A stretch of DNA of 64,000 nucleotides from Lingula anatina (lineage: Eukaryota; Animalia; Brachiopoda). A program made the translations under genes and the position numbers. The notes below the pieces were generated by a model. That model was not told the DNA's origin and did no database searches. It was given only the letters and a program-made list of their open reading frames with translations. Shown one piece after another: positions 1 through 45,574 of the stretch (its first letter is position 1; each line of letters opens with the position of its first letter). Location: positions 1,054,001 to 1,118,000 of the forward strand of contig JBPQGU010000016.1 of NCBI GenBank assembly GCA_051362555.1. Direction: 5' to 3'.

Positions 1-208
1 TGCACATTTGAACGTTTTAATTACAATATACGCTTATTATCCGTTTTGTGAGCAAACGCATTTTTCTTACGGTATAGAACATAACAATAAAATGAAAAAG
101 CAGGGCAAGTAAAGATTACTTGTCTTGAAAAAGTTTGTTGTAATTGTTTATATAATGGATAGGTCTACGTTATCAATAAATACGTTACCAAAAAACGTGA
201 AGGTATTG

Positions 209-627
209 TTTTCTGTTTTCATTCTTTGTTGTCCTTTGGTGCGACACTGTGGATGCGTGCGACGTTGTACATGTGCGCACGCATGTATATACGTCGCTCA
301 TCCTTCTTTGTTACGTTATTATGATACATACGTTACCGTGAAGCGTGTAAATATACATTTATTCTATTTACATTGGTTGTCTTTTGTTTTGTGGGCACAA
401 AACACTTCTGCCTTAAAGTGTTGGCCCACAAAACGAAAGACAAACCACTGTAAATAAAATAAATAAATATTTACACGGATCACGGTAACGTATATATCGG
501 TAACGTATGTATCATTTTAACGTAACAAAGAAGAATGAGCGACGTATAAACATGCGTGCGCACATATACAACGTCACGCGCACACACAGAAGCTTGACAA
601 AGGACAACAAACAATGAAATCAAAAAA
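209..627. repeat. Long imperfect inverted repeat (fold-back/MITE-like palindrome), present in every array unit
   Basis: Arms are ~200 bp. CTTTGTTGTCCTTTG pairs with CAAAGGACAACAAAC; ACGTCGCTCATCCTTCTTTGTTACGTTA with TAACGTAACAAAGAAGAATGAGCGACGT; TTTTGTGGGC with GCCCACAAAA. The apex is AACACTT(401-407)-8 nt loop-AAGTGTT(416-422). Confidence 0.92.
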
Positions 628-800
628 TCATGAACTTTTAAAACGGTCATGAAAAACCTTGGTCGAGGACTGGGGTTGCCCGGGTTGAAATAGGGCACCC
701 GGATTATCGATTGAAATAGCAAATATATACACATGTACATCCAAACTGGCCCTCTCCCTGACAAGCTAGAAAATTTCCATTTGATCCATCACTCAGCAAC

Positions 801-898
801 GAAGCTTCTGTGGCTCCGTGGTAACTCCGTTGCCTTGTGCGTGAGTGTATCCTTGTCCGCTGGTTCGAGACCCAGCAAAATGACTCTGATATTTTTTT
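801..898 (+). ncRNA. Pol III type-2 small RNA gene A, vault-RNA-like (~98 nt); first of 19 copies
   Basis: A-box TGGCTCCGTGG 811-821, B-box GGTTCGAGACC 862-872, T7 terminator 892-898. TGGCTCCGTGGTAACTCCG and TGGTTCGAGACCC resemble the recalled human vtRNA blocks TAGCTCAGCGGTTACTTCG and TGGTTCGAGACCC. It does not fold as a tRNA. Other copies start at 2768, 4735, 6701, 8668, 10635, 12602, 14569, 16536, 18503, 20469, 22435, 24401, 26368, 28335, 30302, 32267, 34232 and 36198. The 5' end is approximate. Confidence 0.5.
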
Positions 899-958
899 CC
901 TAAAAGTAATCTGTAAAATTTGCTTTTGATTACTATAAGAGGAAACTCGTACCTACGG

Positions 959-1165
959 AGGGTGGGCGGGTCAGTCACGGCGCAGTCGGTAGCGTGCTTG
1001 GATGCAAAAAAACAATACAAAGCGTCACCAACCATGGTAACGAGAAGTCACGAGTTCGAATCCCGGATGAGGCACGTCAGTCCATCACGACAACGACCTT
1101 GCCCCCTGTTCGGGCAGTAACCAGAACGAATGCAGGCTCTCGTGGGTCCTAGCAATTTACCTTTT
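959..1165 (+). ncRNA. Pol III type-2 unit B: tRNA-derived structured RNA or SINE-like element (~205 nt); first of 19 copies
   Basis: TATAAG at 934-939, A-box CGGCGCAGTCGG 978-989 within an intact D-arm (GCGC-AGTCGGTA-GCGT), B-box GAGTTCGAATC 1052-1062, first TTTT at 1162-1165. The acceptor and T stems are broken, so this is not a functional tRNA. The G-rich 5' end (959-972) is complementary to GACCTTGCCCCCT (1095-1107). Confidence 0.5.
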
Positions 1166-1731
1166 GCACAATAAAACGATATACTTGAGAATAAGTGATG
1201 GATTTAAAAAGAACATAGTAGCATAAAGTCTGCGTCGTCAATAATATGACATGGGAATGGTCATTGATCTCTATCTTTTTCCAGCTACGTCACCGATCAA
1301 ACTTGCATTGAGCTATTGCTAACCGCGTATAGAGCCTCGCCTGTCATACTGCAATTTCAGCAAAATGGGCTCTTTTCTCGGTGGGATTTTCAGAGGAAAA
1401 AAGTTTTATTTTTTACAAAAGTCGCCCCGCCGCTATTGCTTTTACCAGTTGTAAACTACGTTTGTCTTCTTATGCAACCCCTTCCTATCTTGGGTCCATG
1501 CTTCTCGAGACGGTTCATATGTTCATTCAGTACCCGAGGCAACTCCACAGTCAACAATGAAAGAGTAAAATCTACTCAAAACTGAAACCGCCAAGGTGTG
1601 AACAGCTGTGGATCTCATCGCGCTCTTTAACGTCAAAGGTGAAACCACACGTTATCTCATTGCAAAATAAAATGAAACTAAAAACATCTGAACTCATCTT
1701 ACTAGGAACATTTCCAGCGGATAAGCAATGA

Positions 1732-1851
1732 AACCGATCGACCTTGTATTGATTCAGTAGCTTCAGGTATAACAGCACGTCATACCACCAACCGATCGAC
1801 CTTGAATTGATTCAGTAGCTTCAGGTATAACAAACAACTCGTCATACCACC
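1732..1851. repeat. Two-copy 58 bp direct sub-repeat inside each array unit
   Basis: AACCGATCGACCTTG(T/A)ATTGATTCAGTAGCTTCAGGTATAACA...CGTCATACCACC at 1732-1789 and 1790-1851. Confidence 0.95.
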
Positions 1852-4800
1852 TGTTAACCGCGTTCACCCGAAAAAAAATTTCTTCTGGGCAGAATTATTT
1901 GCCAAATATGTTTTACTCGAAATTCGCATCGACGCAATTGCTTGAATGGAAAAACACACCAGTTTTCTGCACATTTGAACGTTTTAATTACAATATACGC
2001 TTATTATCCGTTTTGTGAGCAAACGCATTTTTCTTACGGTATAGAACATCACAATAAAATGAAAAAGCAGGGCAAGTAAAGATTACTTGTCTTGAAAAAG
2101 TTTGTTGTAATTGTTTATATAATGGATAGGTCTACGTTATCAATAAATACGTTACCAAAAAACGTGAAGGTATTGTTTTCTGTTTTCATTCTTTGTTGTC
2201 CTTTGGTGCGACACTGTGGATGCGTGCGACGTTGTACATGTGCGCACGCATGTATATACGTCGCTCATCCTTCTTTGTTACGTTATTATGATACATACGT
2301 TACCATGAAGCGTGTAAATATACATTTATTCTATTTACATTGGTTGTCTTTTGTTTTGTGGGCACAAAACACTTCTGCCTTAAAGTGTTGGCCCACAAAA
2401 CGAAAGACAAACCACTGTAAATAAAATAAATAAATATTTACACGGATCACGGTAACGTATATATCGGTAACGTATGTATCATTTTAACGTAACAAAGAAG
2501 AATGAGCGACGTATAAACATGCGTGCGCACATATACAACGTCACGCGCACACACAGAGTCTTGACAAAGGACAACAAACAATGAAATCAAAAAATCATGA
2601 ACTTTTAAAACGGTCATGAAAAACCTTGGTCGAGGACTGGGGTTGCCCGGGTTGAAATAGGGCACCCGGATTATCGATTGAAATAGCAAATATATACACA
2701 TGTACATCCAAACTGGCCCTCTCCCTGACAAGCTAGAAAATTTCCATTTGATCCATCACTCAGCAACGAAGCTTCTGTGGCTCCGTGGTAACTCCGTTGC
2801 CTTGTGCGTGAGTGTATCCTTGTCCGCTGGTTCGAGACCCAGCAAAATGACTCTGATATTTTTTTCCTAAAAGTAATCTGTAAAATTTGCTTTTGATTAC
2901 TATAAGAGGAAACTCGTACCTACGGAGGGTGGGCGGGTCAGTCACGGCGCAGTCGGTAGCGTGCTTGGATGCAAAAAAACAATACAAAGCGTCACCAACC
3001 ATGGTAACGAGAAGTCACGAGTTCGAATCCCGGATGAGGCACGTCAGTCCATCACGACAACGACCTTGCCCCCTGTTCGGGCAGTAACCAGAACGAATGC
3101 GGGCTCTCGTGGGTCCTAGCAATTTACCTTTTGCACAATAAAACGATATACTTGAGAATAAGTGATGGATTTAAAAAGAACATAGTAGCATAAAGTCTGC
3201 GTCGTCAATAATATGACATGGGAATGGTCATTGATCTCTATCTTTTTCCAGCTACGTCACCGATCAAACTTGCATTGAGCTATTGCTAACCGCGTATAGA
3301 GCCTCGCCTGTCATACTGCAATTTCAGCAAAATGGGCTCTTTTCTCGGTGGGATTTTCAGAGGAAAAAAGTTTTATTTTTTACAAAAGTCGCCCCGCCGC
3401 TATTGCTTTTACCAGTTGTAAACTACGTTTGTCTTCTTATGCAACCCCTTCCTATCTTGGGTCCATGCTTCTCGAGACGGTTCATATGTTCATTCAGTAC
3501 CCGAGGCAACTCCACAGTCAACAATGAAAGAGTAAAATCTACTCAAAACTGAAACCGCCAAGGTGTGAACAGCTGTGGATCTCATCGCGCTCTTTAACGT
3601 CAAAGGTGAAACCACACGTTATCTCATTGCAAAATAAAATGAAACTAAAAACATCTGAACTCATCTTACTAGGAACATTTCCAGCGGATAAGCAATGAAA
3701 CCGATCGACCTTGTATTGATTCAGTAGCTTCAGGTATAACAGCACGTCATACCACCAACCGATCGACCTTGAATTGATTCAGTAGCTTCAGGTATAACAA
3801 ACAACTCGTCATACCACCTGTTAACCGCGTTCACCCGAAAAAAAATTTCTTCTGGGCAGAATTATTTGCCAAATATGTTTTACTCGAAATTCGCATCGAC
3901 GCAATTGCTTGAATGGAAAAACACACCAGTTTTCTGCACATTTGAACGTTTTAATTACAATATACGCTTATTATCCGTTTTGTGAGCAAACGCATTTTTC
4001 TTACGGTATAGAACATAACAATAAAATGAAAAAGCAGGGCAAGTAAAGATTACTTGTCTTGAAAAAGTTTGTTGTAATTGTTTATATAATGGATAGGTCT
4101 ACGTTATCAATAAATACGTTACCAAAAAACGTGAAGGTATTGTTTTCTGTTTTCATTCTTTGTTGTCCTTTGGTGCGACACTGTGGATGCGTGCGACGTT
4201 GTACATGTGCGCACGCATGTATATACGTCGCTCATCCTTCTTTGTTACGTTATTATGATACATACGTTACCGTGAAGCGTGTAAATATACATTTATTCTA
4301 TTTACATTGGTTGTCTTTTGTTTTGTGGGCACAAAACACTTCTGCCTTAAAGTGTTGGCCCACAAAACGAAAGACAAACCACTGTAAATAAAATAAATAA
4401 ATATTTACACGGATCACGGTAACGTATATATCGGTAACGTATGTATCATTTTAACGTAACAAAGAAGAATGAGCGACGTATAAACATGCGTGCGCACATA
4501 TACAACGTCACGCGCACACACAGAGTCTTGACAAAGGACAACAAACAATGAAATCAAAAAATCATGAACTTTTAAAACGGTCATGAAAAACCTTGGTCGA
4601 GGACTGGGGTTGCCCGGGTTGAAATAGGGCACCCGGATTATCGATTGAAATAGCAAATATATACACATGTACATCCAAACTGGCCCTCTCCCTGACAAGC
4701 TAGAAAATTTCCATTTGATCCATCACTCAGCAACGAAGCTTCTGTGGCTCCGTGGTAACTCCGTTGCCTTGTGCGTGAGTGTATCCTTGTCCGCTGGTTC

Positions 4801-7800
4801 GAGACCCAGCAAAATGACTCTGATATTTTTTTCCTAAAAGTAATCTGTAAAATTTGCTTTTGATTACTATAAGAGGAAACTCGTACCTACGGAGGGTGGG
4901 CGGGTCAGTCACGGCGCAGTCGGTAGCGTGCTTGGATGCAAAAAAACAATACAAAGCGTCACCAACCATGGTAACGAGAAGTCACGAGTTCGAATCCCGG
5001 ATGAGGCACGTCAGTCCATCACGACAACGACCTTGCCCCCTGTTCGGGCAGTAACCAGAACGAATGCGGGCTCTCGTGGGTCCTAGCAATTTACCTTTTG
5101 CACAATAAAACGATATACTTGAGAATAAGTGATGGATTTAAAAAGAACATAGTAGCATAAAGTCTGCGTCGTCAATAATATGACATGGGAATGGTCATTG
5201 ATCTCTATCTTTTTCCAGCTACGTCACCGATCAAACTTGCATTGAGCTATTGCTAACCGCGTATAGAGCCTCGCCTGTCATACTGCAATTTCAGCAAAAT
5301 GGGCTCTTTTCTCGGTGGGATTTTCAGAGGAAAAAAGTTTTATTTTTTACAAAAGTCGCCCCGCCGCTATTGCTTTTACCAGTTGTAAACTACGTTTGTC
5401 TTCTTATGCACCCCCTTCCTATCTTGGGTCCATGCTTCTCGAGACGGTTCATATGTTCATTCAGTACCCGAGGCAACTCCACAGTCAACAATGAAAGAGT
5501 AAAATCTACTCAAAACTGAAACCGCCAAGGTGTGAACAGCTGTGGATCTCATCGCGCTCTTTAACGTCAAAGGTGAAACCACACGTTATCTCATTGCAAA
5601 ATAAAATGAAACTAAAAACATCTGAACTCATCTTACTAGGAACATTTCCAGCGGATAAGCAATGAAACCGATCGACCTTGTATTGATTCAGTAGCTTCAG
5701 GTTTAACAGCACGTCATACCACCAACCGATCGACCTTGAATTGATTCAGTAGCTTCAGGTATAACAAACAACACGTCATACCACCTGTTAACCGCGTTCA
5801 CCCGAAAAAAAATTTCTTCTGGGCAGAATTATTTGCCAAATATGTTTTACTCGAAATTCGCATCGACGCAATTGCTTGAATGGAAAACACACCAGTTTTC
5901 TGCACATTTGAACGTTTTAATTACAATAAACGCTTATTATCCGTTTTGTGAGCAAACGCATTTTTCTTACGGTATAGAACATAACAATAAAATGAAAAAG
6001 CAGGGCAAGTAAAGATTACTTGTCTTGAAAAAGTTTGTTGTAATTGTTTATATAATGGATAGGTCTACGTTATCAATAAATACGTTACCAAAAAACGTGA
6101 AGGTATTGTTTTCTGTTTTCATTCTTTGTTGTCCTTTGGTGCGACACTGTGGGTGCGTGCGACGTTGTACATGTGCGCACGCATGTATATACGTCGCTCA
6201 TCCTTCTTTGTTACGTTATTATGATACATACGTTACCATGAAGCGTGTAAATATACATTTATTCTATTTACATTGGTTGTCTTTTGTTTTGTGGGCACAA
6301 AACACTTCTGCCTTAAAGTGTTGGCCCACAAAACGAAAGACAAACCACTGTAAATAAAATAAATAAATATTTACACGGATCACGGTAACGTATATATCGG
6401 TAACGTATGTATCATTTTAACGTAACAAAGAAGAATGAGCGACGTATAAACATGCGTGCGCACATATACAACGTCACGCGCACACACAGAGTCTTGACAA
6501 AGGACAACAAACAATGAAATCAAAAAATCATGAACTTTTAAAACGGTCATGAAAAACCTTGGTCGAGGACTGGGGTTGCCCGGGTTGAAATAGGGCACCC
6601 GGATTATCGATTGAAATAGCAAATATATACACATGTACATCCAAACTGGCCCTCTCCCTGACAAGCTAGAAAATTTCCATTTGATCCATCACTCAGCAAC
6701 GAAGCTTCTGTGGCTCCGTGGTAACTCCGTTGCCTTGTGCGTGAGTGTATCCTTGTCCGCTGGTTCGAGACCCAGCAAAATGACTCTGATATTTTTTTCC
6801 TAAAAGTAATCTGTAAAATTTGCTTTTGATTACTATAAGAGGAAACTCGTACCTACGGAGGGTGGGCGGGTCAGTCACGGCGCAGTCGGTAGCGTGCTTG
6901 GATGCAAAAAAACAATACAAAGCGTCACCAACCATGGTAACGAGAAGTCACGAGTTCGAATCCCGGATGAGGCACGTCAGTCCATCACGACAACGACCTT
7001 GCCCCCTGTTCGGGCAGTAACCAGAACGAATGCGGGCTCTCGTGGGTCCTAGCAATTTACCTTTTGCACAATAAAACGATATACTTGAGAATAAGTGATG
7101 GATTTAAAAAGAACATAGTAGCATAAAGTCTGCGTCGTCAATAATATGACATGGGAATGGTCATTGATCTCTATCTTTTTCCAGCTACGTCACCGATCAA
7201 ACTTGCATTGAGCTATTGCTAACCGCGTATAGAGCCTCGCCTGTCATACTGCAATTTCAGCAAAATGGGCTCTTTTCTCGGTGGGATTTTCAGAGGAAAA
7301 AAGTTTTATTTTTTACAAAAGTCGCCCCGCCGCTATTGCTTTTACCAGTTGTAAACTACGTTTGTCTTCTTATGCAACCCCTTCCTATCTTGGGTCCATG
7401 CTTCTCGAGACGGTTCATATGTTCATTCAGTACCCGAGGCAACTCCACAGTCAACAATGAAAGAGTAAAATCTACTCAAAACTGAAACCGCCAAGGTGTG
7501 AACAGCTGTGGATCTCATCGCGCTCTTTAACGTCAAAGGTGAAACCACACGTTATCTCATTGCAAAATAAAATGAAACTAAAAACATCTGAACTCATCTT
7601 ACTAGGAACATTTCCAGCGGATAAGCAATGAAACCGATCGACCTTGTATTGATTCAGTAGCTTCAGGTATAACAGCACGTCATACCACCAACCGATCGAC
7701 CTTGAATTGATTCAGTAGCTTCAGGTATAACAAACAACTCGTCATACCACCTGTTAACCGCGTTCACCCGAAAAAAAATTTCTTCTGGGCAGAATTATTT

Positions 7801-10800
7801 GCCAAATATGTTTTACTCGAAATTCGCATCGACGCAATTGCTTGAATGGAAAAACACACCAGTTTTCTGCACATTTGAACGTTTTAATTACAATATACGC
7901 TTATTATCCGTTTTGTGAGCAAACGCATTTTTCTTACGGTATAGAACATAACAATAAAATGAAAAAGCAGGGCAAGTAAAGATTACTTGTCTTGAAAAAG
8001 TTTGTTGTAATTGTTTATATAATGGATAGGTCTACGTTATCAATAAATACGTTACCAAAAAACGTGAAGGTATTGTTTTCTGTTTTCATTCTTTGTTGTC
8101 CTTTGGTGCGACACTGTGGATGCATGCGACGTTGTACATGTGCGCACGCATGTATATACGTCGCTCATCCTTCTTTGTTACGTTATTATGATACATACGT
8201 TACCGTGAAGCGTGTAAATATACATTTATTCTATTTACATTGGTTGTCTTTTGTTTTGTGGGCACAAAACACTTCTGCCTTAAAGTGTTGGCCCACAAAA
8301 CGAAAGACAAACCACTGTAAATAAAATAAATAAATATTTACACGGATCACGGTAACGTATATATCGGTAACGTATGTATCATTTTAACGTAACAAAGAAG
8401 AATGAGCGACGTATAAACATGCGTGCGCACATATACAACGTCACGCGCACACACAGAGTCTTGACAAAGGACAACAAACAATGAAATCAAAAAATCATGA
8501 ACTTTTAAAACGGTCATGAAAAACCTTGGTCGAGGACTGGGGTTGCCCGGGTTGAAATAGGGCACCCGGATTATCGATTGAAATAGCAAATATATACACA
8601 TGTACATCCAAACTGGCCCTCTCCCTGACAAGCTAGAAAATTTCCATTTGATCCATCACTCAGCAACGAAGCTTCTGTGGCTCCGTGGTAACTCCGTTGC
8701 CTTGTGCGTGAGTGTATCCTTGTCCGCTGGTTCGAGACCCAGCAAAATGACTCTGATATTTTTTTCCTAAAAGTAATCTGTAAAATTTGCTTTTGATTAC
8801 TATAAGAGGAAACTCGTACCTACGGAGGGTGGGCGGGTCAGTCACGGCGCAGTCGGTAGCGTGCTTGGATGCAAAAAAACAATACAAAGCGTCACCAACC
8901 ATGGTAACGAGAAGTCACGAGTTCGAATCCCGGATGAGGCACGTCAGTCCATCACGACAACGACCTTGCCCCCTGTTCGGGCAGTAACCAGAACGAATGC
9001 GGGCTCTCGTGGGTCCTAGCAATTTACCTTTTGCACAATAAAACGATATACTTGAGAATAAGTGATGGATTTAAAAAGAACATAGTAGCATAAAGTCTGC
9101 GTCGTCAATAATATGACATGGGAATGGTCATTGATCTCTATCTTTTTCCAGCTACGTCACCGATCAAACTTGCATTGAGCTATTGCTAACCGCGTATAGA
9201 GCCTCGCCTGTCATACTGCAATTTCAGCAAAATGGGCTCTTTTCTCGGTGGGATTTTCAGAGGAAAAAAGTTTTATTTTTTACAAAAGTCGCCCCGCCGC
9301 TATTGCTTTTACCAGTTGTAAACTACGTTTGTCTTCTTATGCAACCCCTTCCTATCTTGGGTCCATGCTTCTCGAGACGGTTCATATGTTCATTCAGTAC
9401 CCGAGGCAACTCCACAGTCAACAATGAAAGAGTAAAATCTACTCAAAACTGAAACCGCCAAGGTGTGAACAGCTGTGGATCTCATCGCGCTCTTTAACGT
9501 CAAAGGTGAAACCACACGTTATCTCATTGCAAAATAAAATGAAACTAAAAACATCTGAACTCATCTTACTAGGAACATTTCCAGCGGATAAGCAATGAAA
9601 CCGATCGACCTTGTATTGATTCAGTAGCTTCAGGTATAACAGCACGTCATACCACCAACCGATCGACCTTGAATTGATTCAGTAGCTTCAGGTATAACAA
9701 ACAACTCGTCATACCACCTGTTAACCGCGTTCACCCGAAAAAAAATTTCTTCTGGGCAGAATTATTTGCCAAATATGTTTTACTCGAAATTCGCATCGAC
9801 GCAATTGCTTGAATGGAAAAACACACCAGTTTTCTGCACATTTGAACGTTTTAATTACAATATACGCTTATTATCCGTTTTGTGAGCAAACGCATTTTTC
9901 TTACGGTATAGAACATAACAATAAAATGAAAAAGCAGGGCAAGTAAAGATTACTTGTCTTGAAAAAGTTTGTTGTAATTGTTTATATAATGGATAGGTCT
10001 ACGTTATCAATAAATACGTTACCAAAAAACGTGAAGGTATTGTTTTCTGTTTTCATTCTTTGTTGTCCTTTGGTGCGACACTGTGGATGCGTGCGACGTT
10101 GTACATGTGCGCACGCATGTATATACGTCGCTCATCCTTCTTTGTTACGTTATTATGATACATACGTTACCGTGAAGCGTGTAAATATACATTTATTCTA
10201 TTTACATTGGTTGTCTTTTGTTTTGTGGGCACAAAACACTTCTGCCTTAAAGTGTTGGCCCACAAAACGAAAGACAAACCACTGTAAATAAAATAAATAA
10301 ATATTTACACGGATCACGGTAACGTATATATCGGTAACGTATGTATCATTTTAACGTAACAAAGAAGAATGAGCGACGTATAAACATGCGTGCGCACATA
10401 TACAACGTCACGCGCACACACAGAGTCTTGACAAAGGACAACAAACAATGAAATCAAAAAATCATGAACTTTTAAAACGGTCATGAAAAACCTTGGTCGA
10501 GGACTGGGGTTGCCCGGGTTGAAATAGGGCACCCGGATTATCGATTGAAATAGCAAATATATACACATGTACATCCAAACTGGCCCTCTCCCTGACAAGC
10601 TAGAAAATTTCCATTTGATCCATCACTCAGCAACGAAGCTTCTGTGGCTCCGTGGTAACTCCGTTGCCTTGTGCGTGAGTGTATCCTTGTCCGCTGGTTC
10701 GAGACCCAGCAAAATGACTCTGATATTTTTTTCCTAAAAGTAATCTGTAAAATTTGCTTTTGATTACTATAAGAGGAAACTCGTACCTACGGAGGGTGGG

Positions 10801-25800: not shown

Positions 25801-28800
25801 CTTTGGTGCGACACTGTGGATGCGTGCGACGTTGTACATGTGCGCACGCATGTATATACGTCGCTCATCCTTCTTTGTTACGTTATTATGATACATACGT
25901 TACCGTGAAGCGTGTAAATATACATTTATTCTATTTACATTGGTTGTCTTTTGTTTTGTGGGCACAAAACACTTCTGCCTTAAAGTGTTGGCCCACAAAA
26001 CGAAAGACAAACCACTGTAAATAAAATAAATAAATATTTACACGGATCACGGTAACGTATATATCGGTAACGTATGTATCATTTTAACGTAACAAAGAAG
26101 AATGAGCGACGTATAAACATGCGTGCGCACATATACAACGTCACGCGCACACACAGAGTCTTGACAAAGGACAACAAACAATGAAATCAAAAAATCATGA
26201 ACTTTTAAAACGGTCATGAAAAACCTTGGTCGAGGACTGGGGTTGCCCGGGTTGAAATAGGGCACCCGGATTATCGATTGAAATAGCAAATATATACACA
26301 TGTACATCCAAACTGGCCCTCTCCCTGACAAGCTAGAAAATTTCCATTTGATCCATCACTCAGCAACGAAGCTTCTGTGGCTCCGTGGTAACTCCGTTGC
26401 CTTGTGCGTGAGTGTATCCTTGTCCGCTGGTTCGAGACCCAGCAAAATGACTCTGATATTTTTTTCCTAAAAGTAATCTGTAAAATTTGCTTTTGATTAC
26501 TATAAGAGGAAACTCGTACCTACGGAGGGTGGGCGGGTCAGTCACGGCGCAGTCGGTAGCGTGCTTGGATGCAAAAAAACAATACAAAGCGTCACCAACC
26601 ATGGTAACGAGAAGTCACGAGTTCGAATCCCGGATGAGGCACGTCAGTCCATCACGACAACGACCTTGCCCCCTGTTCGGGCAGTAACCAGAACGAATGC
26701 GGGCTCTCGTGGGTCCTAGCAATTTACCTTTTGCACAATAAAACGATATACTTGAGAATAAGTGATGGATTTAAAAAGAACATAGTAGCATAAAGTCTGC
26801 GTCGTCAATAATATGACATGGGAATGGTCATTGATCTCTATCTTTTTCCAGCTACGTCACCGATCAAACTTGCATTGAGCTATTGCTAACCGCGTATAGA
26901 GCCTCGCCTGTCATACTGCAATTTCAGCAAAATGGGCTCTTTTCTCGGTGGGATTTTCAGAGGAAAAAAGTTTTATTTTTTACAAAAGTCGCCCCGCCGC
27001 TATTGCTTTTACCAGTTGTAAACTACGTTTGTCTTCTTATGCAACCCCTTCCTATCTTGGGTCCATGCTTCTCGAGACGGTTCATATGTTCATTCAGTAC
27101 CCGAGGCAACTCCACAGTCAACAATGAAAGAGTAAAATCTACTCAAAACTGAAACCGCCAAGGTGTGAACAGCTGTGGATCTCATCGCGCTCTTTAACGT
27201 CAAAGGTGAAACCACACGTTATCTCATTGCAAAATAAAATGAAACTAAAAACATCTGAACTCATCTTACTAGGAACATTTCCAGCGGATAAGCAATGAAA
27301 CCGATCGACCTTGTATTGATTCAGTAGCTTCAGGTATAACAGCACGTCATACCACCAACCGATCGACCTTGAATTGATTCAGTAGCTTCAGGTATAACAA
27401 ACAACACGTCATACCACCTGTTAACCGCGTTCACCCGAAAAAAAATTTCTTCTGGGCAGAATTATTTGCCAAATATGTTTTACTCGAAATTCGCATCGAC
27501 GCAATTGCTTGAATGGAAAAACACACCAGTTTTCTGCACATTTGAACGTTTTAATTACAATATACGCTTATTATCCGTTTTGTGAGCAAACGCATTTTTC
27601 TTACGGTATAGAACATAACAATAAAATGAAAAAGCAGGGCAAGTAAAGATTACTTGTCTTGAAAAAGTTTGTTGTAATTGTTTATATAATGGATAGGTCT
27701 ACGTTATCAATAAATACGTTACCAAAAAACGTGAAGGTATTGTTTTCTGTTTTCATTCTTTGTTGTCCTTTGGTGCGACACTGTGGATGCGTGCGACGTT
27801 GTACATGTGCGCACGCATGTATATACGTCGCTCATCCTTCTTTGTTACGTTATTATGATACATACGTTACCGTGAAGCGTGTAAATATACATTTATTCTA
27901 TTTACATTGGTTGTCTTTTGTTTTGTGGGCACAAAACACTTCTGCCTTAAAGTGTTGGCCCACAAAACGAAAGACAAACCACTGTAAATAAAATAAATAA
28001 ATATTTACACGGATCACGGTAACGTATATATCGGTAACGTATGTATCATTTTAACGTAACAAAGAAGAATGAGCGACGTATAAACATGCGCGCGCACATA
28101 TACAACGTCACGCGCACACACAGAGTCTTGACAAAGGACAACAAACAATGAAATCAAAAAATCATGAACTTTTAAAACGGTCATGAAAAACCTTGGTCGA
28201 GGACTGGGGTTGCCCGGGTTGAAATAGGGCACCCGGATTATCGATTGAAATAGCAAATATATACACATGTACATCCAAACTGGCCCTCTCCCTGACAAGC
28301 TAGAAAATTTCCATTTGATCCATCACTCAGCAACGAAGCTTCTGTGGCTCCGTGGTAACTCCGTTGCCTTGTGCGTGAGTGTATCCTTGTCCGCTGGTTC
28401 GAGACCCAGCAAAATGACTCTGATATTTTTTTCCTAAAAGTAATCTGTAAAATTTGCTTTTGATTACTATAAGAGGAAACTCGTACCTACGGAGGGTGGG
28501 CGGGTCAGTCACGGCGCAGTCGGTAGCGTGCTTGGATGCAAAAAAACAATACAAAGCGTCACCAACCATGGTAACGAGAAGTCACGAGTTCGAATCCCGG
28601 ATGAGGCACGTCAGTCCATCACGACAACGACCTTGCCCCCTGTTCGGGCAGTAACCAGAACGAATGCGGGCTCTCGTGGGTCCTAGCAATTTACCTTTTG
28701 CACAATAAAACGATATACTTGAGAATAAGTGATGGATTTAAAAAGAACATAGTAGCATAAAGTCTGCGTCGTCAATAATATGACATGGGAATGGTCATTG

Positions 28801-31800
28801 ATCTCTATCTTTTTCCAGCTACGTCACCGATCAAACTTGCATTGAGCTATTGCTAACCGCGTATAGAGCCTCGCCTGTCATACTGCAATTTCAGCAAAAT
28901 GGGCTCTTTTCTCGGTGGGATTTTCAGAGGAAAAAAGTTTTATTTTTTACAAAAGTCGCCCCGCCGCTATTGCTTTTACCAGTTGTAAACTACGTTTGTC
29001 TTCTTATGCAACCCCTTCCTATCTTGGGTCCATGCTTCTCGAGACGGTTCATATGTTCATTCAGTACCCGAGGCAACTCCACAGTCAACAATGAAAGAGT
29101 AAAATCTACTCAAAACTGAAACCGCCAAGGTGTGAACAGCTGTGGATCTCATCGCGCTCTTTAACGTCAAAGGTGAAACCACACGTTATCTCATTGCAAA
29201 ATAAAATGAAACTAAAAACATCTGAACTCATCTTACTAGGAACATTTCCAGCGGATAAGCAATGAAACCGATCGACCTTGTATTGATTCAGTAGCTTCAG
29301 GTATAACAGCACGTCATACCACCAACCGATCGACCTTGAATTGATTCAGTAGCTTCAGGTATAACAAACAACACGTCATACCACCTGTTAACCGCGTTCA
29401 CCCGAAAAAAAATTTCTTCTGGGCAGAATTATTTGCCAAATATGTTTTACTCGAAATTCGCATCGACGCAATTGCTTGAATGGAAAAACACACCAGTTTT
29501 CTGCACATTTGAACGTTTTAATTACAATATACGCTTATTATCCGTTTTGTGAGCAAACGCATTTTTCTTACGGTATAGAACATAACAATAAAATGAAAAA
29601 GCAGGGCAAGTAAAGATTACTTGTCTTGAAAAAGTTTGTTGTAATTGTTTATATAATGGATAGGTCTACGTTATCAATAAATACGTTACCAAAAAACGTG
29701 AAGGTATTGTTTTCTGTTTTCATTCTTTGTTGTCCTTTGGTGCGACACTGTGGATGCGTGCGACGTTGTACATGTGCGCACGCATGTATATACGTCGCTC
29801 ATCCTTCTTTGTTACGTTATTATGATACATACGTTACCGTGAAGCGTGTAAATATACATTTATTCTATTTACATTGGTTGTCTTTTGTTTTGTGGGCACA
29901 AAACACTTCTGCCTTAAAGTGTTGGCCCACAAAACGAAAGACAAACCACTGTAAATAAAATAAATAAATATTTACACGGATCACGGTAACGTATATATCG
30001 GTAACGTATGTATCATTTTAACGTAACAAAGAAGAATGAGCGACGTATAAACATGCGCGCGCACATATACAACGTCACGCGCACACACAGAGTCTTGACA
30101 AAGGACAACAAACAATGAAATCAAAAAATCATGAACTTTTAAAACGGTCATGAAAAACCTTGGTCGAGGACTGGGGTTGCCCGGGTTGAAATAGGGCACC
30201 CGGATTATCGATTGAAATAGCAAATATATACACATGTACATCCAAACTGGCCCTCTCCCTGACAAGCTAGAAAATTTCCATTTGATCCATCACTCAGCAA
30301 CGAAGCTTCTGTGGCTCCGTGGTAACTCCGTTGCCTTGTGCGTGAGTGTATCCTTGTCCGCTGGTTCGAGACCCAGCAAAATGACTCTGATATTTTTTTC
30401 CTAAAAGTAATCTGTAAAATTTGCTTTTGATTACTATAAGAGGAAACTCGTACCTACGGAGGGTGGGCGGGTCAGTCACGGCGCAGTCGGTAGCGTGCTT
30501 GGATGCAAAAAACAATACAAAGCGTCACCAACCATGGTAACGAGAAGTCACGAGTTCGAATCCCGGATGAGGCACGTCAGTCCATCACGACAACGACCTT
30601 GCCCCCTGTTCGGGCAGTAACCAGAACGAATGCGGGCTCTCGTGGGTCCTAGCAATTTACCTTTTGCACAATAAAACGATATACTTGAGAATAAGTGATG
30701 GATTTAAAAAGAACATAGTAGCATAAAGTCTGCGTCGTCAATAATATGACATGGGAATGGTCATTGATCTCTATCTTTTTCCAGCTACGTCACCGATCAA
30801 ACTTGCATTGAGCTATTGCTAACCGCGTATAGAGCCTCGCCTGTCATACTGCAATTTCAGCAAAATGGGCTCTTTTCTCGGTGGGATTTTCAGAGGAAAA
30901 AAGTTTTATTTTTTACAAAAGTCGCCCCGCCGCTATTGCTTTTACCAGTTGTAAACTACGTTTGTCTTCTTATGCACCCCCTTCCTATCTTGGGTCCATG
31001 CTTCTCGAGACGGTTCATATGTTCATTCAGTACCCGAGGCAACTCCACAGTCAACAATGAAAGAGTAAAATCTACTCAAAACTGAAACCGCCAAGGTGTG
31101 AACAGCTGTGGATCTCATCGCGCTCTTTAACGTCAAAGGTGAAACCACACGTTATCTCATTGCAAAATAAAATGAAACTAAAAACATCTGAACTCATCTT
31201 ACTAGGAACATTTCCAGCGGATAAGCAATGAAACCGATCGACCTTGTATTGATTCAGTAGCTTCAGGTATAACAGCACGTCATACCACCAACCGATCGAC
31301 CTTGAATTGATTCAGTAGCTTCAGGTATAACAAACAACACGTCATACCACCTGTTAACCGCGTTCACCCGAAAAAAAATTTCTTCTGGGCAGAATTATTT
31401 GCCAAATATGTTTTACTCGAAATTCGCATCGACGCAATTGCTTGAATGGAAAACACACCAGTTTTCTGCACATTTGAACGTTTTAATTACAATATACGCT
31501 TATTATCCGTTTTGTGAGCAAACGCATTTTTCTTACGGTATAGAACATAACAATAAAATGAAAAAGCAGGGCAAGTAAAGATTACTTGTCCTGAAAAAGT
31601 TTGTTGTAATTGTTTATATAATGGATAGGTCTACGTTATCAATAAATACGTTACCAAAAAACGTGAAGGTATTGTTTTCTGTTTTCATTCTTTGTTGTCC
31701 TTTGGTGCGACACTGTGGATGCGTGCGACGTTGTACATGTGCGCACGCATGTATATACGTCGCTCATCCTTCTTTGTTACGTTATTATGATACATACGTT

Positions 31801-34800
31801 ACCGTGAAGCGTGTAAATATACATTTATTCTATTTACATTGGTTGTCTTTTGTTTTGTGGGCACAAAACACTTCTGCCTTAAAGTGTTGGCCCACAAAAC
31901 GAAAGACAAACCACTGTAAATAAAATAAATAAATATTTACACGGATCACGGTAACGTATATATCGGTAACGTATGTATCATTTTAACGTAACAAAGAAGA
32001 ATGAGCGACGTATAAACATGCGCGCGCACATATACAACGTCACGCGCACACACAGAGTCTTGACAAAGGACAACAAACAATGAAATCAAAAAATCATGAA
32101 CTTTTAAAACGGTCATGAAAAACCTTGGTCGAGGACTGGGGTTGCCCGGGTTGAAATAGGGCACCCGGATTATCGATTGAAATAGCAAATATATACACAT
32201 GTACATCCAAACTGGCCCTCTCCCTGACAAGCTAGAAAATTTCCATTTGATCCATCACTCAGCAACGAAGCTTCTGTGGCTCCGTGGTAACTCCGTTGCC
32301 TTGTGCGTGAGTGTATCCTTGTCCGCTGGTTCGAGACCCAGCAAAATGACTCTGATATTTTTTTCCTAAAAGTAATCTGTAAAATTTGCTTTTGATTACT
32401 ATAAGAGGAAACTCGTACCTACGGAGGGTGGGCGGGTCAGTCACGGCGCAGTCGGTAGCGTGCTTGGATGCAAAAAACAATACAAAGCGTCACCAACCAT
32501 GGTAACGAGAAGTCACGAGTTCGAATCCCGGATGAGGCACGTCAGTCCATCACGACAACGACCTTGCCCCCTGTTCGGGCAGTAACCAGAACGAATGCGG
32601 GCTCTCGTGGGTCCTAGCAATTTACCTTTTGCACAATAAAACGATATACTTGAGAATAAGTGATGGATTTAAAAAGAACATAGTAGCATAAAGTCTGCGT
32701 CGTCAATAATATGACATGGGAATGGTCATTGATCTCTATCTTTTTCCAGCTACGTCACCGATCAAACTTGCATTGAGCTATTGCTAACCGCGTATAGAGC
32801 CTCGCCTGTCATACTGCAATTTCAGCAAAATGGGCTCTTTTCTCGGTGGGATTTTCAGAGGAAAAAAGTTTTATTTTTTACAAAAGTCGCCCCGCCGCTA
32901 TTGCTTTTACCAGTTGTAAACTACGTTTGTCTTCTTATGCACCCCCTTCCTATCTTGGGTCCATGCTTCTCGAGACGGTTCATATGTTCATTCAGTACCC
33001 GAGGCAACTCCACAGTCAACAATGAAAGAGTAAAATCTACTCAAAACTGAAACCGCCAAGGTGTGAACAGCTGTGGATCTCATCGCGCTCTTTAACGTCA
33101 AAGGTGAAACCACACGTTATCTCATTGCAAAATAAAATGAAACTAAAAACATCTGAACTCATCTTACTAGGAACATTTCCAGCGGATAAGCAATGAAACC
33201 GATCGACCTTGTATTGATTCAGTAGCTTCAGGTATAACAGCACGTCATACCACCAACCGATCGACCTTGAATTGATTCAGTAGCTTCAGGTATAACAAAC
33301 AACACGTCATACCACCTGTTAACCGCGTTCACCCGAAAAAAAATTTCTTCTGGGCAGAATTATTTGCCAAATATGTTTTACTCGAAATTCGCATCGACGC
33401 AATTGCTTGAATGGAAAACACACCAGTTTTCTGCACATTTGAACGTTTTAATTACAATATACGCTTATTATCCGTTTTGTGAGCAAACGCATTTTTCTTA
33501 CGGTATAGAACATAACAATAAAATGAAAAAGCAGGGCAAGTAAAGATTACTTGTCCTGAAAAAGTTTGTTGTAATTGTTTATATAATGGATAGGTCTACG
33601 TTATCAATAAATACGTTACCAAAAAACGTGAAGGTATTGTTTTCTGTTTTCATTCTTTGTTGTCCTTTGGTGCGACACTGTGGATGCGTGCGACGTTGTA
33701 CATGTGCGCACGCATGTATATACGTCGCTCATCCTTCTTTGTTACGTTATTATGATACATACGTTACCGTGAAGCGTGTAAATATACATTTATTCTATTT
33801 ACATTGGTTGTCTTTTGTTTTGTGGGCACAAAACACTTCTGCCTTAAAGTGTTGGCCCACAAAACGAAAGACAAACCACTGTAAATAAAATAAATAAATA
33901 TTTACACGGATCACGGTAACGTATATATCGGTAACGTATGTATCATTTTAACGTAACAAAGAAGAATGAGCGACGTATAAACATGCGCGCGCACATATAC
34001 AACGTCACGCGCACACACAGAGTCTTGACAAAGGACAACAAACAATGAAATCAAAAAATCATGAACTTTTAAAACGGTCATGAAAAACCTTGGTCGAGGA
34101 CTGGGGTTGCCCGGGTTGAAATAGGGCACCCGGATTATCGATTGAAATAGCAAATATATACACATGTACATCCAAACTGGCCCTCTCCCTGACAAGCTAG
34201 AAAATTTCCATTTGATCCATCACTCAGCAACGAAGCTTCTGTGGCTCCGTGGTAACTCCGTTGCCTTGTGCGTGAGTGTATCCTTGTCCGCTGGTTCGAG
34301 ACCCAGCAAAATGACTCTGATATTTTTTTCCTAAAAGTAATCTGTAAAATTTGCTTTTGATTACTATAAGAGGAAACTCGTACCTACGGAGGGTGGGCGG
34401 GTCAGTCACGGCGCAGTCGGTAGCGTGCTTGGATGCAAAAAAACAATACAAAGCGTCACCAACCATGGTAACGAGAAGTCACGAGTTCGAATCCCGGATG
34501 AGGCACGTCAGTCCATCACGACAACGACCTTGCCCCCTGTTCGGGCAGTAACCAGAACGAATGCGGGCTCTCGTGGGTCCTAGCAATTTACCTTTTGCAC
34601 AATAAAACGATATACTTGAGAATAAGTGATGGATTTAAAAAGAACATAGTAGCATAAAGTCTGCGTCGTCAATAATATGACATGGGAATGGTCATTGATC
34701 TCTATCTTTTTCCAGCTACGTCACCGATCAAACTTGCATTGAGCTATTGCTAACCGCGTATAGAGCCTCGCCTGTCATACTGCAATTTCAGCAAAATGGG

Positions 34801-36197
34801 CTCTTTTCTCGGTGGGATTTTCAGAGGAAAAAAGTTTTATTTTTTACAAAAGTCGCCCCGCCGCTATTGCTTTTACCAGTTGTAAACTACGTTTGTCTTC
34901 TTATGCAACCCCTTCCTATCTTGGGTCCATGCTTCTCGAGACGGTTCATATGTTCATTCAGTACCCGAGGCAACTCCACAGTCAACAATGAAAGAGTAAA
35001 ATCTACTCAAAACTGAAACCGCCAAGGTGTGAACAGCTGTGGATCTCATCGCGCTCTTTAACGTCAAAGGTGAAACCACACGTTATCTCATTGCAAAATA
35101 AAATGAAACTAAAAACATCTGAACTCATCTTACTAGGAACATTTCCAGCGGATAAGCAATGAAACCGATCGACCTTGTATTGATTCAGTAGCTTCAGGTA
35201 TAACAGCACGTCATACCACCAACCGATCGACCTTGAATTGATTCAGTAGCTTCAGGTATAACAAACAACACGTCATACCACCTGTTAACCGCGTTCACCC
35301 GAAAAAAAATTTCTTCTGGGCAGAATTATTTGCCAAATATGTTTTACTCGAAATTCACATCGACGCAATTGCTTGAATGGAAAACACACCAGTTTTCTGC
35401 ACATTTGAACGTTTTAATTACAATATACGCTTATTATCCGTTTTGTGAGCAAACGCATTTTTCTTACGGTATAGAACATAACAATAAAATGAAAAAGCAG
35501 GGCAAGTAAAGATTACTTGTCTTGAAAAAGTTTGTTGTAATTGTTTATATAATGGATAGGTCTACGTTATCAATAAATACGTTACCAAAAAACGTGAAGG
35601 TATTGTTTTCTGTTTTCATTCTTTGTTGTCCTTTGGTGCGACACTGTGGATGCGTGCGACGTTGTACATGTGCGCACGCATGTATATTCGTCGCTCATCC
35701 TTCTTTGTTACGTTATTATGATACATACGTTACCGTGAAGCGTGTAAATATACATTTATTCTATTTACATTGGTTGTCTTTTGTTTTGTGGGCACAAAAC
35801 ACTTCTGCCTTAAAGTGTTGGCCCACAAAACGAAAGACAAACCACTGTAAATAAAATAAATAAATATTTACACGGATCACGGTAACGTATATATCGGTAA
35901 CGTATGTATCATTTTAACGTAACAAAGAAGAATGAGCGACGTATAAACATGCGCGCGCACATATACAACGTCACGCGCACACACAGAGTCTTGACAAAGG
36001 ACAACAAACAATGAAATCAAAAAATCATGAACTTTTAAAACGGTCATGAAAAACCTTGGTCGAGGACTGGGGTTGCCCGGGTTGAAATAGGGCACCCGGA
36101 TTATCGATTGAAATAGCAAATATATACACATGTACATCCAAACTGGCCCTCTCCCTGACAAGCTAGAAAATTTCCATTTGATCCATCACTCAGCAAC

Positions 36198-36295
36198 GAA
36201 GCTTCTGTGGCTCCGTGGTAACTCCGTTGCCTTGTGCGTGAGTGTACCCTTGTCCGCTGGTTCGAGACCCAGCAAAATGACTCTGATATTTTTTT
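36198..36295 (+). ncRNA. Last copy of vault-RNA-like Pol III gene A
   Basis: Same A-box, B-box and T7 as 801-898, with one T>C change in the central region shared with the copy at 22435. Confidence 0.45.
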
Positions 36296-36355
36296 CCTAA
36301 AAGTAATCTGTAAAATTTGCTTTTCATTACTATAAGAGGAAACTCGTACCTACGG

Positions 36356-36562
36356 AGGGTGGGCGGGTCAGTCACGGCGCAGTCGGTAGCGTGCTTGGAT
36401 GCAAAAAAACAATACAAAGCGTCACCAACCATGGTAACGAGAAGTCACGAGTTCGAATCCCGGATGAGGCACGTCAGTCCATCACGACAACGACCTTGCC
36501 CCCTGTTCGGGCAGTAACCAGAACGAATGCGGGCTCTCGTGGGTCCTAGCAATTTACCTTTT
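36356..36562 (+). ncRNA. Last copy of tRNA-derived Pol III unit B
   Basis: Same A-box, B-box and TTTT as 959-1165. Confidence 0.45.
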
Positions 36563-37990
36563 GCACAATAAAACGATATACTTGAGAATAAGTGATGGAT
36601 TTAAAAAGAACATAGTAGCATAAAGTCTGCGGCGTCAATAATATGACATGGGAATGGTCATTGATCTCTATCTTTTTCCAGCTACGTCACCGATCAAACT
36701 TGCATTGAGCTATTGCTAACCGCGTATAGAGCCTCGCCTGTCATACTGCAATTTCAGCAAAATGGGCTCTTTTCTCGGTGGGATTTTCAGAGGAAAAAAG
36801 TTTTATTTTTTACAAAAGTCGCCCCGCCGCTATTGCTTTTACCAGTTGTAAACTACGTTTGTCTTCTTATGCAACCCCTTCCTATCTTGGGTCCATGCTT
36901 CTCGAGACGGTTCATATGTTCATTCAGTACCCGAGGCAACTCCACAGTCAACAATGAAAGAGTAAAATCTACTCAAAACTGAAACCGCCAAGGTGTGAAC
37001 AGCTGTGGATCTCATCGCGCTCTTTAACGTCAAAGGTGAAACCACACGTTATCTCGTTGCAAAATAAAATGAAACTAAAAACATCTGAACTCATCTTACT
37101 AGGAACATTTCCAGCGGATAAGCAATGAAACCGATCGACCTTGTATTGATTCAGTAGCTTCAGGTATAACAGCACGTCATACCACCAACCGATCGACCTT
37201 GAATTGATTCAGTAGCTTCAGGTATAACAAACAACACGTCATACCACCTGTTAACCGCGTTCACCCGAAAAAAAATTTCTTCTGGGCAGAATTATTTGCC
37301 AAATATGTTTTACTCGAAATTCGCATCGACGCAATTGCTTGAATGGAAAACACACCAGTTTTCTGCACATTTGAACGTTTTAATTACAATATACGCTTAT
37401 TATCCGTTTTGTGAGCAAACGCATTTTTCTTACGGTATAGAACATAACAATAAAATGAAAAAGCAGGGCAAGTAAAGATTACTTGTCTTGAAAAAGTTTG
37501 TTGTAATTGTTTATATAATGGATAGGTCTACGTTATCAATAAATACGTTACCAAAAAACGTGAAGGTATTGTTTTCTGTTTTCATTCTTTGTTGTCCTTT
37601 GGTGCGACACTGTGGATGCGTGCGACGTTGTACATGTGCGCACGCATGTATATACGTCGCTCATCCTTCTTTGTTACGTTATTATGATACATACGTTACC
37701 ATGAAGCGTGTAAATATACATTTATTCTATTTACATTGGTTGTCTTTTGTTTTGTGGGCACAAAACACTTCTGCCTTAAAGTGTTGGCCCACAAAACGAA
37801 AGACAAACCACTGTAAATAAAATAAATAAATATTTACACGGATCACGGTAACGTATATATCGGTAACGTATGTATCATTTTAACGTAACAAAGAAGAATG
37901 AGCGACGTATAAACATGCGTGCGCACATATACAACGTCACGCGCACACACAGAGTCTTGACAAAGGACAACAAACAATGAAATCAAAAAT

Positions 37991-45000: not shown

Positions 45001-45505
45001 AAAAGATTACAGTTTTTGAAAAGGGAAAGTGATAGTTTGTGATAGATTACTGTACTTCGTCTGACAGGAACAATTATAATATCACTTAAGGTAGGATAGC
45101 ATGACTGAAGATAGGGAAGAATATTGTTGATATGTTATTGATTTGGTTGATGATTAAATAGCATGGATATAAATAGCATCACTGAGAAGAAACAAATTGG
45201 AGCATGGATGTAAAAAGCGTGCAATATTCCCAAGTGCCAAGGGAAGTATATGATATGTAAAATATATCCCAACCAATTTATAAATAGGTATTTCTTTAAG
45301 AAGTCACCAACATGTTAATCAGTACATATTTATTGAATAGTTTTTCTTTGCATTTATTAGTTAAACTTATGGTTCTTATTATTATTTCATTTCAGCTGCG
45401 ATCTCTTCACGTCCTGGCCAGTGTGGCAGATGTGATGGCTACGTTCTGGAAGGAAAAGAACTAGAATTCTATTTGAGAAAGATCAAGCAGAAGAAGGGCA
45501 AATAG
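42036..45505 (+). CDS. RPS8: 40S ribosomal protein S8 (eS8), 6 coding exons, 208 aa
   Basis: GT-AG exons 42036-42039, 42492-42598, 42949-43048, 43534-43709, 44138-44267 and 45396-45505 total 627 nt. Translation: [99 protein letters not shown]...[34 protein letters not shown]. Confidence 0.98.
44684..44785 (+). ncRNA. SNORD46: Box C/D snoRNA, SNORD46 (U40/snR63) family, in RPS8 intron 5
   Basis: C box GTGATGA 44690-44696, D box CTGA 44777-44780, terminal stem ACTGC-A-GGCTA / TAGTC-GCAGT. The guide GTCATAGTTAC is complementary to LSU rRNA helix 69 GUAACUAUGAC. The 3' end CTTGTCATAGTTACACTGA matches the recalled human SNORD46, which is also hosted by RPS8. Confidence 0.9.
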
Positions 45506-45574
45506 ACTGAAAAATACTGACCAACCAATTTCATTCTGTAAAAACTTGAGAGAAAAGGAAGAATATGTATTATG

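Follow-up and report, generated by a model that had tools for sequence, protein, structure and literature searches.

A tandem array beside RPS8 in Lingula anatina repeats a putative two-module RNA polymerase III cassette, with a neighboring palindrome as the probable driver of amplification

We analyzed a window of 64,000 nucleotides from the brachiopod Lingula anatina, in which a long tandem array is followed by two genes (Table 1). The RPS8 promoter probably lies near 41300, and the array ends at 37999, about 3 kb short of this region. The first exon of the next gene matches pumilio of L. anatina with 100% identity, the match covering 90% of the query. A preliminary description of this DNA had reported at least 19 near-identical units of ∼2 kb, each with two co-oriented A-box/B-box/oligo-T modules, a fold-back palindrome, spacer sub-repeats, and no real open reading frame, and all of these features were recovered here. 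Twenty unit starts were found, the partial 20th unit stopping at the array end, and since the window covers the right end of the array only, the copy number is at least 19 full units. The units are 99.7% identical, with 23 variable columns among them and a mean of 5.05 pairwise differences (range, 0 to 11). Multi-unit turnover is seen in the array: divergence between units increases with distance (Spearman 0.33, with pairs that are not independent), and 8 of 23 unit pairs sharing rare variants are 7 units apart.

Table 1. Features of the window; those lying within the repeat are given in positions of one unit
Feature	Position	Strand	Remarks
Tandem array	1..37999	+	19 full units of 1965-1967 bp and a partial unit; continues beyond the left window edge
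Truncated foldback (palindromic) element, one per unit	34..637	.	Self-inverse core 209-627; unit junction 627-637
Module 1 (putative)	801..898	+	A box 811-821; TAACTCCG 822-829; B box 862-872; T7 892-898
TATA-like TATAAGA	934-940	+	∼25 nt upstream of module 2, within the 926-1005 conserved block
Module 2 (putative)	957..1165	+	A box 978-989; 31-nt insert 1008-1038; B box 1053-1063; T4 1162-1165
Spacer sub-repeats, two of 58/62 bp	1732-1851	+	Third, decayed copy near 1291-1335
Older foldback tandem, decayed and lacking the cassette	37397..40807	.	Spacings 1223-1362 bp (∼1.3 kb)
RPS8 coding exons	42037..45507	+	Coding start 42037 read by eye
Pumilio gene	47415..63000 (end approximate)	+	Sequence match

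The unit has a GC content of about 41%, and CpG is not depleted in the array (observed/expected, 0.63 to 1.65 versus 0.28 in the pumilio body), which is compatible with unmethylated DNA. Its longest stop-to-stop frames span 114, 105, and 102 amino acids, and no Pfam family reached its cut-off when all six frames were scanned (best E value, 0.087). Beside the two spacer sub-repeats there is a third, decayed copy near 1291-1335, whose score was equaled in 3 of 500 shuffles. The unit contains no hammerhead core motif and, on the sense strand, no Sm site.

The promoter anatomy of the two modules is beyond chance. Near-consensus boxes and terminators are present in all 19 units, and neither module carries an internal T4. 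Two modules were found in none of 5,000 dinucleotide shuffles of the unit and one module in 21, a null that is fitted to the sequence because the B-box rule was broadened after a narrower rule had missed module 2. The same promoter pattern found no module in 38000-64000. An alignment of the modules with each other was no better than chance (98 of 500 shuffles).

Module 2 would start at 957-965 and yield an RNA of about 205 nt. Its A box has one mismatch, and its tRNA-like head, followed by a ∼90-nt hairpin tail, combines an intact D stem (4/4) with a broken acceptor stem (2/7), an anticodon stem of 4/5, and a T stem of 3/5. The fold is no better than that of shuffled sequences (z-score, 0.13), and the probability of the main stem ranges from 0.11 to 0.85 with the chosen start. 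Deleting the 31-nt insert in silico gave no tRNA (ARAGORN, default and -ps80). The module is best read as a candidate RNA gene that derives from a tRNA and is restricted to this lineage, its promoter/5′ block and its 3′ end being under constraint and the part between them variable.

Module 1 would start at about 800-804 and yield an RNA of about 95 nt. Its B box has the TTCGAGACC form of vertebrate vault RNAs. The A box has one mismatch, the normally invariant A14 being C, and scores 8 of 9 consensus positions. Vault RNAs are described as 80 to 150 nt long, with box A, box B, and a T run, and in those of lophotrochozoans a TTACTTCG motif directly follows box A (PMC8824774). Module 1 has box A near its 5′ end, box B, the T7 run, and a suitable length, and its TAACTCCG, directly 3′ of box A, shares 6 of 8 bases with TTACTTCG. 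A 5′/3′ panhandle is absent (at most 0.09 expected end pairs over nine start sites); forming it costs 10.7 kcal/mol (−12.8 kcal/mol with the inner stem forced versus −23.5 kcal/mol), and there is no match to Rfam RF00006 (Vault) up to an E value of 10. The folding z-score is −1.2 to −2.0, so that a stable RNA fold is unsupported for either module. As a cloverleaf, module 1 has acceptor, D, anticodon, and T stems of 4/7, 1/4, 4/5, and 5/5, the last with an 8-nt loop. In metagenome and viral contigs a strict vault-like pattern had no matches and a loose one had 4 and 46; these 50 loci were taken as chance occurrences and not as vault-like relatives because all of their A boxes score at most 6/9. 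Module 1 may be a derived or decayed vault-RNA-like gene.

Neither module could be assigned to a catalogued family. With gathering thresholds, Rfam found SNORA73 only in the whole window, outside the array, and E-value searches up to 10 gave nothing credible on either module. No Rfam match in the unit was obtained for 5S, U snRNAs, 7SL, 7SK, RNase P/MRP, or Y RNA, although a divergent invertebrate member could escape such a search. ARAGORN found no tRNAs, either by default or at -ps90 with introns allowed; at -ps80 and -ps70 it made 29 and 156 calls in the 26 kb that the array does not occupy, so these settings carry no information. By stem counts and ARAGORN, neither module forms a functional tRNA cloverleaf. 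The preliminary description could not match the unit to 5S, U1-U6, SL, 7SL, histone, or a functional tRNA and had proposed Rfam and a tRNA finder as a check; the Rfam and ARAGORN results agree with it. BLAST of the modules against phages returned just 19- to 37-nt matches (E values, 0.2 to 9), some on tRNA T arms.

For RNA-seq, four runs (X1, X4, X5, and X7) of nine picked by species label were each sampled at ∼6 to 25% of their size and mapped onto 640-1730 of the unit; for a spliced leader or other RNA in 1731-1967 and 1-639, the analysis covered Rfam searches. With a mapping threshold of 90%, more diverged copies would escape detection, and such libraries mostly miss small non-polyA RNA. 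No discrete Pol III transcript was seen in the four runs, two of which had no control snoRNA reads, and there was no sense-strand pile-up, even in X1, which carried SNORA73 reads; the blank in X4 and X5 carries no information since neither had any SNORA73 reads. None of the 56 mapped reads was at least 99% alike to the unit, those from X4 and X5 were antisense, and those from X1 and X7 extended beyond the terminator.

The reads, from diverged Lingula-labeled animals, instead revealed homologous cassettes with the same flanks. Those of X4 differ from 926-1005 at 6 of 80 positions (92% identity), and X5 reads match the same block, whereas the X4 loose end, compared by eye, matches spacer 896-925 at 17 of 30 positions (57%; 13 differences), a level reached by 24 of 22,970 background 30-mers. 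The contrast between block and spacer (Fisher P = 4 × 10⁻⁵) is inflated because the 90% threshold itself selects conserved blocks, and both comparisons of this kind rest on 30-letter loose ends read by eye. At the 3′ end, X7 reads agree with the unit at 40 of 44 positions of 1125-1168 and at 22 of the next 30, the latter a level reached by none of the 22,970 background 30-mers (Fisher P = 0.058). The X4/X5 homologue looks damaged: the A-box G at 988 is gone, and a T4 lies ∼20 nt past 1005. In four X1 reads, 1043 and 1044 are altered in a way that disrupts the tRNA-like anticodon stem. A "NAGNAG" reading of one junction was dropped, as three other letters stand there, and it was taken as an allele.

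Judged by these sequences, the cassette predates the array. We also considered whether the partial reads come from SINE fragments with unrelated surroundings and rejected this, since their loose ends match the window flanks; homologues that share flanks make the modules unlike dispersed SINE fragments. Decayed, dispersed SINEs with no excess conservation over the spacer, together with a lack of transcripts and Pol III occupancy, had been named beforehand as the outcome that would overturn an RNA gene array; on the SINE part, what we find is shared flanks and a better-kept 926-1005. The expectation that conservation would be focused in 801-1165 holds in part: the module 2 block is conserved (6/80 versus 13/30 differences), but the modules show no deficit of within-array variants (3 in 308 bp versus 20 in 1,659 bp in the rest of the unit; low power).

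The palindrome of each unit (209-627, 77.5% self-inverse) is a truncated portion of a ∼1-kb foldback element that extends beyond the array end. It has the long inverted arms and lack of coding capacity of foldback/MITE-like elements, with ends blurred by nested duplications, and its miRNA matches in the Rfam E-value search are far under their gathering scores. The BLAST match of the unit ends at unit position 637 (window 37999), where the right arm goes on, so that the unit junction lies inside the foldback. An older, cassette-free foldback tandem stands at the array end. Unit 34-627 has a flank copy at 38759-39352, matching at 95.3%, the stretches 37397-38393 and 38759-39741 share 94% identity, and the foldback of the last array unit runs intact into the older tandem. 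Amplification thus looks palindrome driven, since the junction sits in a foldback that already formed an older ∼1.3-kb tandem.

We therefore favor, at about even chances, a young homogeneous array whose unit joins a truncated foldback to an older cassette of likely Pol III-transcribed modules, the cassette having probably been carried along by palindrome-seeded amplification. TFIIIC would bind the A and B boxes, assisted at module 2 by the TATA-like box, and Pol III would stop at the T runs; the modules are likely transcribed into RNAs of ∼95 and ∼205 nt. Breaks in the palindrome could seed tandem amplification with the cassette as passenger, and a duplication ending within the palindrome would have been expanded and homogenized by unequal crossing-over, in which case the copy number mostly reflects local instability. 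The array was probably multiplied by the adjacent palindromic repeat and not by selection for more RNA, and a palindromic trigger is compatible with later selection on copy number. The earlier reading of an undescribed noncoding RNA array as opposed to an inert satellite is supported in part, by modules without a family and by some module 2 conservation. Its high-dosage component is not supported, given the junction in the foldback, the adjoining cassette-free tandem, and the undepleted module variants (low power).

A dosage-selected array, in which functional RNA genes, e.g., a derived vault RNA and a partner, were amplified like 5S or U2, perhaps for oocyte supply, is unlikely. The boxes and terminators kept in 19/19 units, the TTACTTCG-like motif and 8/9 A box of module 1, the conserved 926-1005, and undepleted CpG would fit it, but module 1 lacks the vault panhandle and Rfam match, the variants and cassette-free tandem speak against it, and the X4/X5 homologue looks damaged. 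Also improbable is an inert, untranscribed satellite of dead tRNA pseudogenes or SINE heads, amplified by the foldback and with boxes kept by chance. Satellites derived from tRNA have precedent (PMC10702118), and the broken cloverleaves, weak folding scores, and missing sense-strand pile-up, even in X1, agree with this; however, the X4/X5 blank is uninformative, in homologous cassettes the spacer has diverged more than the TATA-to-A-box block and the 3′ end, and boxes, TATA-like element, and clean terminators survive despite spacer drift to 57 to 73%.

We consider it quite unlikely that the locus is a selected two-gene Pol III cassette, a derived vault RNA plus a new ∼205-nt brachiopod RNA family, whose at least 19-fold amplification next to RPS8 would serve dosage. 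In that case the ∼205-nt RNA would have a tRNA-like domain clamped by stem 965-972/1095-1103 and then variable hairpins, and a TROVE-domain protein (Ro60/TEP1) of this lineage could possibly have its missing ligand here. Very unlikely is a DNA-level element whose boxes would be TFIIIC boundary sites shielding the RPS8/pumilio housekeeping domain, with RNA a by-product: promoter boxes are kept and RNA stems are not, the array stops short of the RPS8 promoter region, and a human tRNA tandem repeat at 1q23.3 has been proposed as a boundary (PMC4041453), but the module 2 3′ end, 70 to 110 nt past the B box, is well kept in X7, beyond what a box-only function predicts.

The palindrome-seeded array that we favor resembles known systems. 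Xenopus OAX/satellite I, newt PolIII/TAN, and Rana/polIII are tRNA-derived Pol III tandem repeats with head-to-tail units; each unit contains a segment that descends from a tRNA but is not one, carries Pol III boxes, and corresponds to no SINE family (PMC10702118). At the sequence level the Lingula unit shares this organization, although PolIII/TAN and Rana/polIII units measure 250 to 360 nt, compared to 1,967 bp with two unlike modules and a foldback fragment. Primate snaR genes are likewise lineage-restricted type 2 Pol III genes multiplied with flanking DNA into arrays, but they are Alu derived, expressed, and NF90 bound (PMC3045588), whereas the Lingula modules look tRNA or vault derived. 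By its sequence we place the locus among Pol III-cassette tandem repeats of the OAX, PolIII/TAN, or snaR type, carrying a probably real RNA gene without a catalogued family.

A species has one to four validated vault genes, in contrast to the at least 19 tandem copies of module 1, and an upstream CRE-like proximal element is described for vault genes (PMC7058938). The human 1q23.3 repeat is also an unstable multi-kb tandem with Pol III genes, but its GC-rich unit of 7.3 kb carries genuine tRNA genes (PMC4041453). Module 2 shares with tRNA-derived SINEs the tRNA-like head, intact boxes, broken acceptor, and non-tRNA body but has no A-rich or simple-repeat tail before its terminator. The TATA region upstream and the flanks on both sides recur in its homologues, and retrotransposition would not copy these; flanks are shared in the two homologues where they are readable (17/30 and 22/30, within the 90% detection limit).

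Little is known of the Pol III repertoire of lophotrochozoans: a 2009 schistosome survey reports no vault or Y RNA (PMC2770079), and our literature search joining "vault RNA" with "Lingula" found no paper. If no RNA is made, the locus is an ordinary large satellite. If transcribed, module 2 would be a candidate for a new family of small RNAs, and module 1 one for a vault-like RNA of brachiopods. Three stages adjoin here, namely the foldback, its old tandem, and the young array that carries the genes, and the locus therefore allows a direct test of whether RNA-gene arrays start as passengers of unstable palindromes.

The window begins with a head-to-tail repeat (1-37,999). Its 19 full units measure 1965-1967 bp and are followed by a partial twentieth; each full unit carries two Pol III-type modules, confirming the organization reported in the preliminary description. 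Because the array reaches the left window edge, 19 full units is a minimum. The units have 23 variable columns, any two of them differ at 5.05 positions on average, and both private and shared variants are present. Divergence between units increases with distance along the array (Spearman 0.33, the pairs being non-independent), 8 of the 23 unit pairs with a common rare variant lie at a spacing of 7 units, and units 12 and 19 have four rare variants in common. This variant sharing and distance-dependent divergence suggest that the array is genuine, not an assembly collapse, and turns over via unequal exchange of several units at a time.

The unit palindrome is a portion of an ∼1-kb foldback element, which is truncated at 627-637 in every unit, where the two-module cassette follows, and is uninterrupted at the array end. 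Past this end, more foldback copies form a tandem that lacks the cassette, recurring every 1223-1362 bp, the first two copies showing 94% identity. The cassette-free tandem is the older of the two, and foldback amplification at the locus therefore preceded the young array. The unit junction of the young array falls within the foldback, and a duplication with an endpoint in the palindrome would have taken in the adjoining cassette. We give about an even chance to an array that was seeded by the foldback and carries, as a passenger, an older two-gene Pol III cassette that is probably transcribed. At window 37397-40807, nested foldback copies consist of ∼165-bp inverted subunits with a 15-bp tandem motif and have a CpG observed/expected ratio of 1.5-1.65 versus 0.28-0.44 in the adjacent gene bodies; the foldback here is probably an unmethylated non-autonomous element.

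The boxes were read against the A-box/B-box consensus and the vertebrate vault form of box B. Two such modules occurred together in 0 of 5000 shuffles of the unit, under a rule broadened after a narrower version missed module 2, and the same rule found no A-box/B-box/T-run module in the 26 kb of the window outside the array. Rfam gave nothing credible up to E 10 for the unit or either module and ARAGORN called no tRNA either by default or when relaxed by 10%, with introns allowed, upholding the earlier failure to match known RNA families or a functional tRNA; Pfam gave no family at cut-off in the unit's six reading frames.

Features of the repeat unit (first-unit coordinates) and of the neighboring genes (window coordinates)
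Feature	Position	Strand	Details
Module 1	unit 801-898	+	A box 811; B box 862; T7 892-898
TATA-like TATAAGA	unit 934-940		from sequence
Module 2	unit 957-1165	+	A box 978; B box 1053; T4 1162-1165
SNORD46-like C/D snoRNA	window 44683-44786	+	RPS8 intron; 29 bits, E 0.002, under gathering score of 40
29-bp minisatellites	window 49903-49959; 53030-53328		pumilio introns; 2 and 10.4 copies, respectively
SNORA73	window 55133-55375	+	pumilio intron; 117.9 bits

Module 1 agrees in size, boxes, and terminator with the vault RNA search criteria of PMC8824774 and has 6 of the 8 bases of the TTACTTCG motif given there after box A. Its bases following box A (820-827) can pair with 867-872 in box B. The vault-defining panhandle is absent, with at most 0.09 expected 5'-3' pairs over nine start sites and a forced panhandle fold of -12.8 versus -23.5 kcal/mol. 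Vault RNA ends are paired in all species, with one to four validated genes per species, according to reviews (PMC7058938). With the panhandle missing, module 1 was rejected as a vault RNA proper and is, on its sequence, vault-like but not classed as vault RNA. Read as a tRNA, it forms one of four D stem pairs. In the tRNA-like head of module 2, pairing is 4/4 in the D stem, 4/5 in the anticodon stem, 3/5 in the T stem, and 2/7 in the acceptor, and the anticodon-like stem encloses a 31-nt insert placed after position 37. The head is followed by a tail of ∼90 nt with predicted hairpins. Module 2 folds no better than shuffles (z 0.13), and the predicted probability of the stem 965-972/1095-1103 varies with the chosen start (0.11-0.85), making the fold a candidate only.

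The genes to the right of the array are RPS8, recognized by its exons (Pfam Ribosomal_S8e), and pumilio. The first pumilio exon matches a protein named as Lingula anatina pumilio with 100% identity across 90% of the query, which places the source in Lingula or a very close relative. Nine RNA-seq runs were found by species label, and four (X1, X4, X5, and X7) were mapped to unit 640-1730, with pumilio exons and SNORA73 as the control. All four gave pumilio reads (125, 145, 339, and 52) at differing identity, X1 being closest (231/339 at ≥99%) and X7 most distant (37/52 at 90-95%). Over SNORA73, the depth was 9-16 in X1 and <2 in X7, and X4 and X5 gave no reads; these libraries therefore mostly miss small non-polyA RNA. 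Beyond 55376, eight X1 reads continue into a flank unlike that of the window, suggesting that another SNORA73 copy lies elsewhere. The unit drew 56 reads (none at ≥99%, 7 at 95-99%, and 49 at 90-95%), among which, in libraries mostly lacking small RNA, none marked a discrete transcript start or end. One X5 pair at 95-99% falls on spacer 1460-1600, and a close spacer copy is therefore also present in that animal. X4 and X5 reads over 926-1005 are antisense; this transcript over a diverged module 2 promoter homologue has a depth of 14-15 versus ∼20 for pumilio.

By eye, the 30 bases upstream of 926 in X4 match window 896-925 at 17 positions, and the 30 downstream of 1168 in X7 match at 22, scores attained by 24 and 0 of 22,970 background 30-mers, respectively; the X4 loose end also contains the end of a T run at the site of the module 1 terminator. 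The reads thus derive from homologous cassettes and, judging by this flank likeness among copies at least 90% alike, not from SINE fragments in foreign flanks. The X4 block 926-1005 has 6/80 differences (Fisher P = 4e-5 versus flank) and the X7 block 1125-1168 has 4/44 (P = 0.058 versus flank). By sequence comparison, the TATA-to-A-box block and the module 2 3' end appear better conserved than the spacer, a contrast weakened by their ascertainment through the 90% identity threshold of read mapping. Downstream of 1005 in X4/X5 and upstream of 1125 in X7, the cassette middle is unalignable. Also counting against conservation, the A box of the X4/X5 copy is altered at 988, a T4 occurs early in this copy, and four X1 reads have changes at 1043-1044 that disrupt the anticodon-like stem. 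The modules show no deficit of variants (3/308 bp versus 20/1659 bp elsewhere in the unit, a low-power test). We regard dosage selection, favored in the preliminary description, as unlikely, and an inert satellite as equally so. A boundary element is the least probable reading.

OAX, PolIII/TAN, and Rana/polIII are tandem repeats with tRNA-derived Pol III segments (PMC10702118), snaR arrays spread through segmental duplication (PMC3045588), and the 1q23.3 tRNA VNTR is a known Pol III-gene tandem repeat (PMC4041453); PMC7904556, PMC11012908, PMC7916137, PMC12547018, PMC550661, and PMC2770079 gave further background. The Lingula array differs from all of these in that each unit combines two dissimilar modules, one of them vault-like, in its foldback at the junction, and in its brachiopod host. 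No description of the locus, of Lingula vault RNA, or of Lingula SINEs was found among the listings from searches of the open-access literature.

Within a pumilio intron, X1 alone of the four runs has sense-strand reads at window 53850-54197 (depth 3-6), possibly an alternative exon or retained intron. An RPS8 intron segment at window 43315-43390, lying between a 9- to 10-bp inverted repeat and with a C-box-like start by eye, is a possible second intronic snoRNA without an Rfam match. We take RPS8 to be the host gene of vertebrate SNORD46; if this is right, the RPS8 host-gene link would be common to brachiopods and vertebrates.
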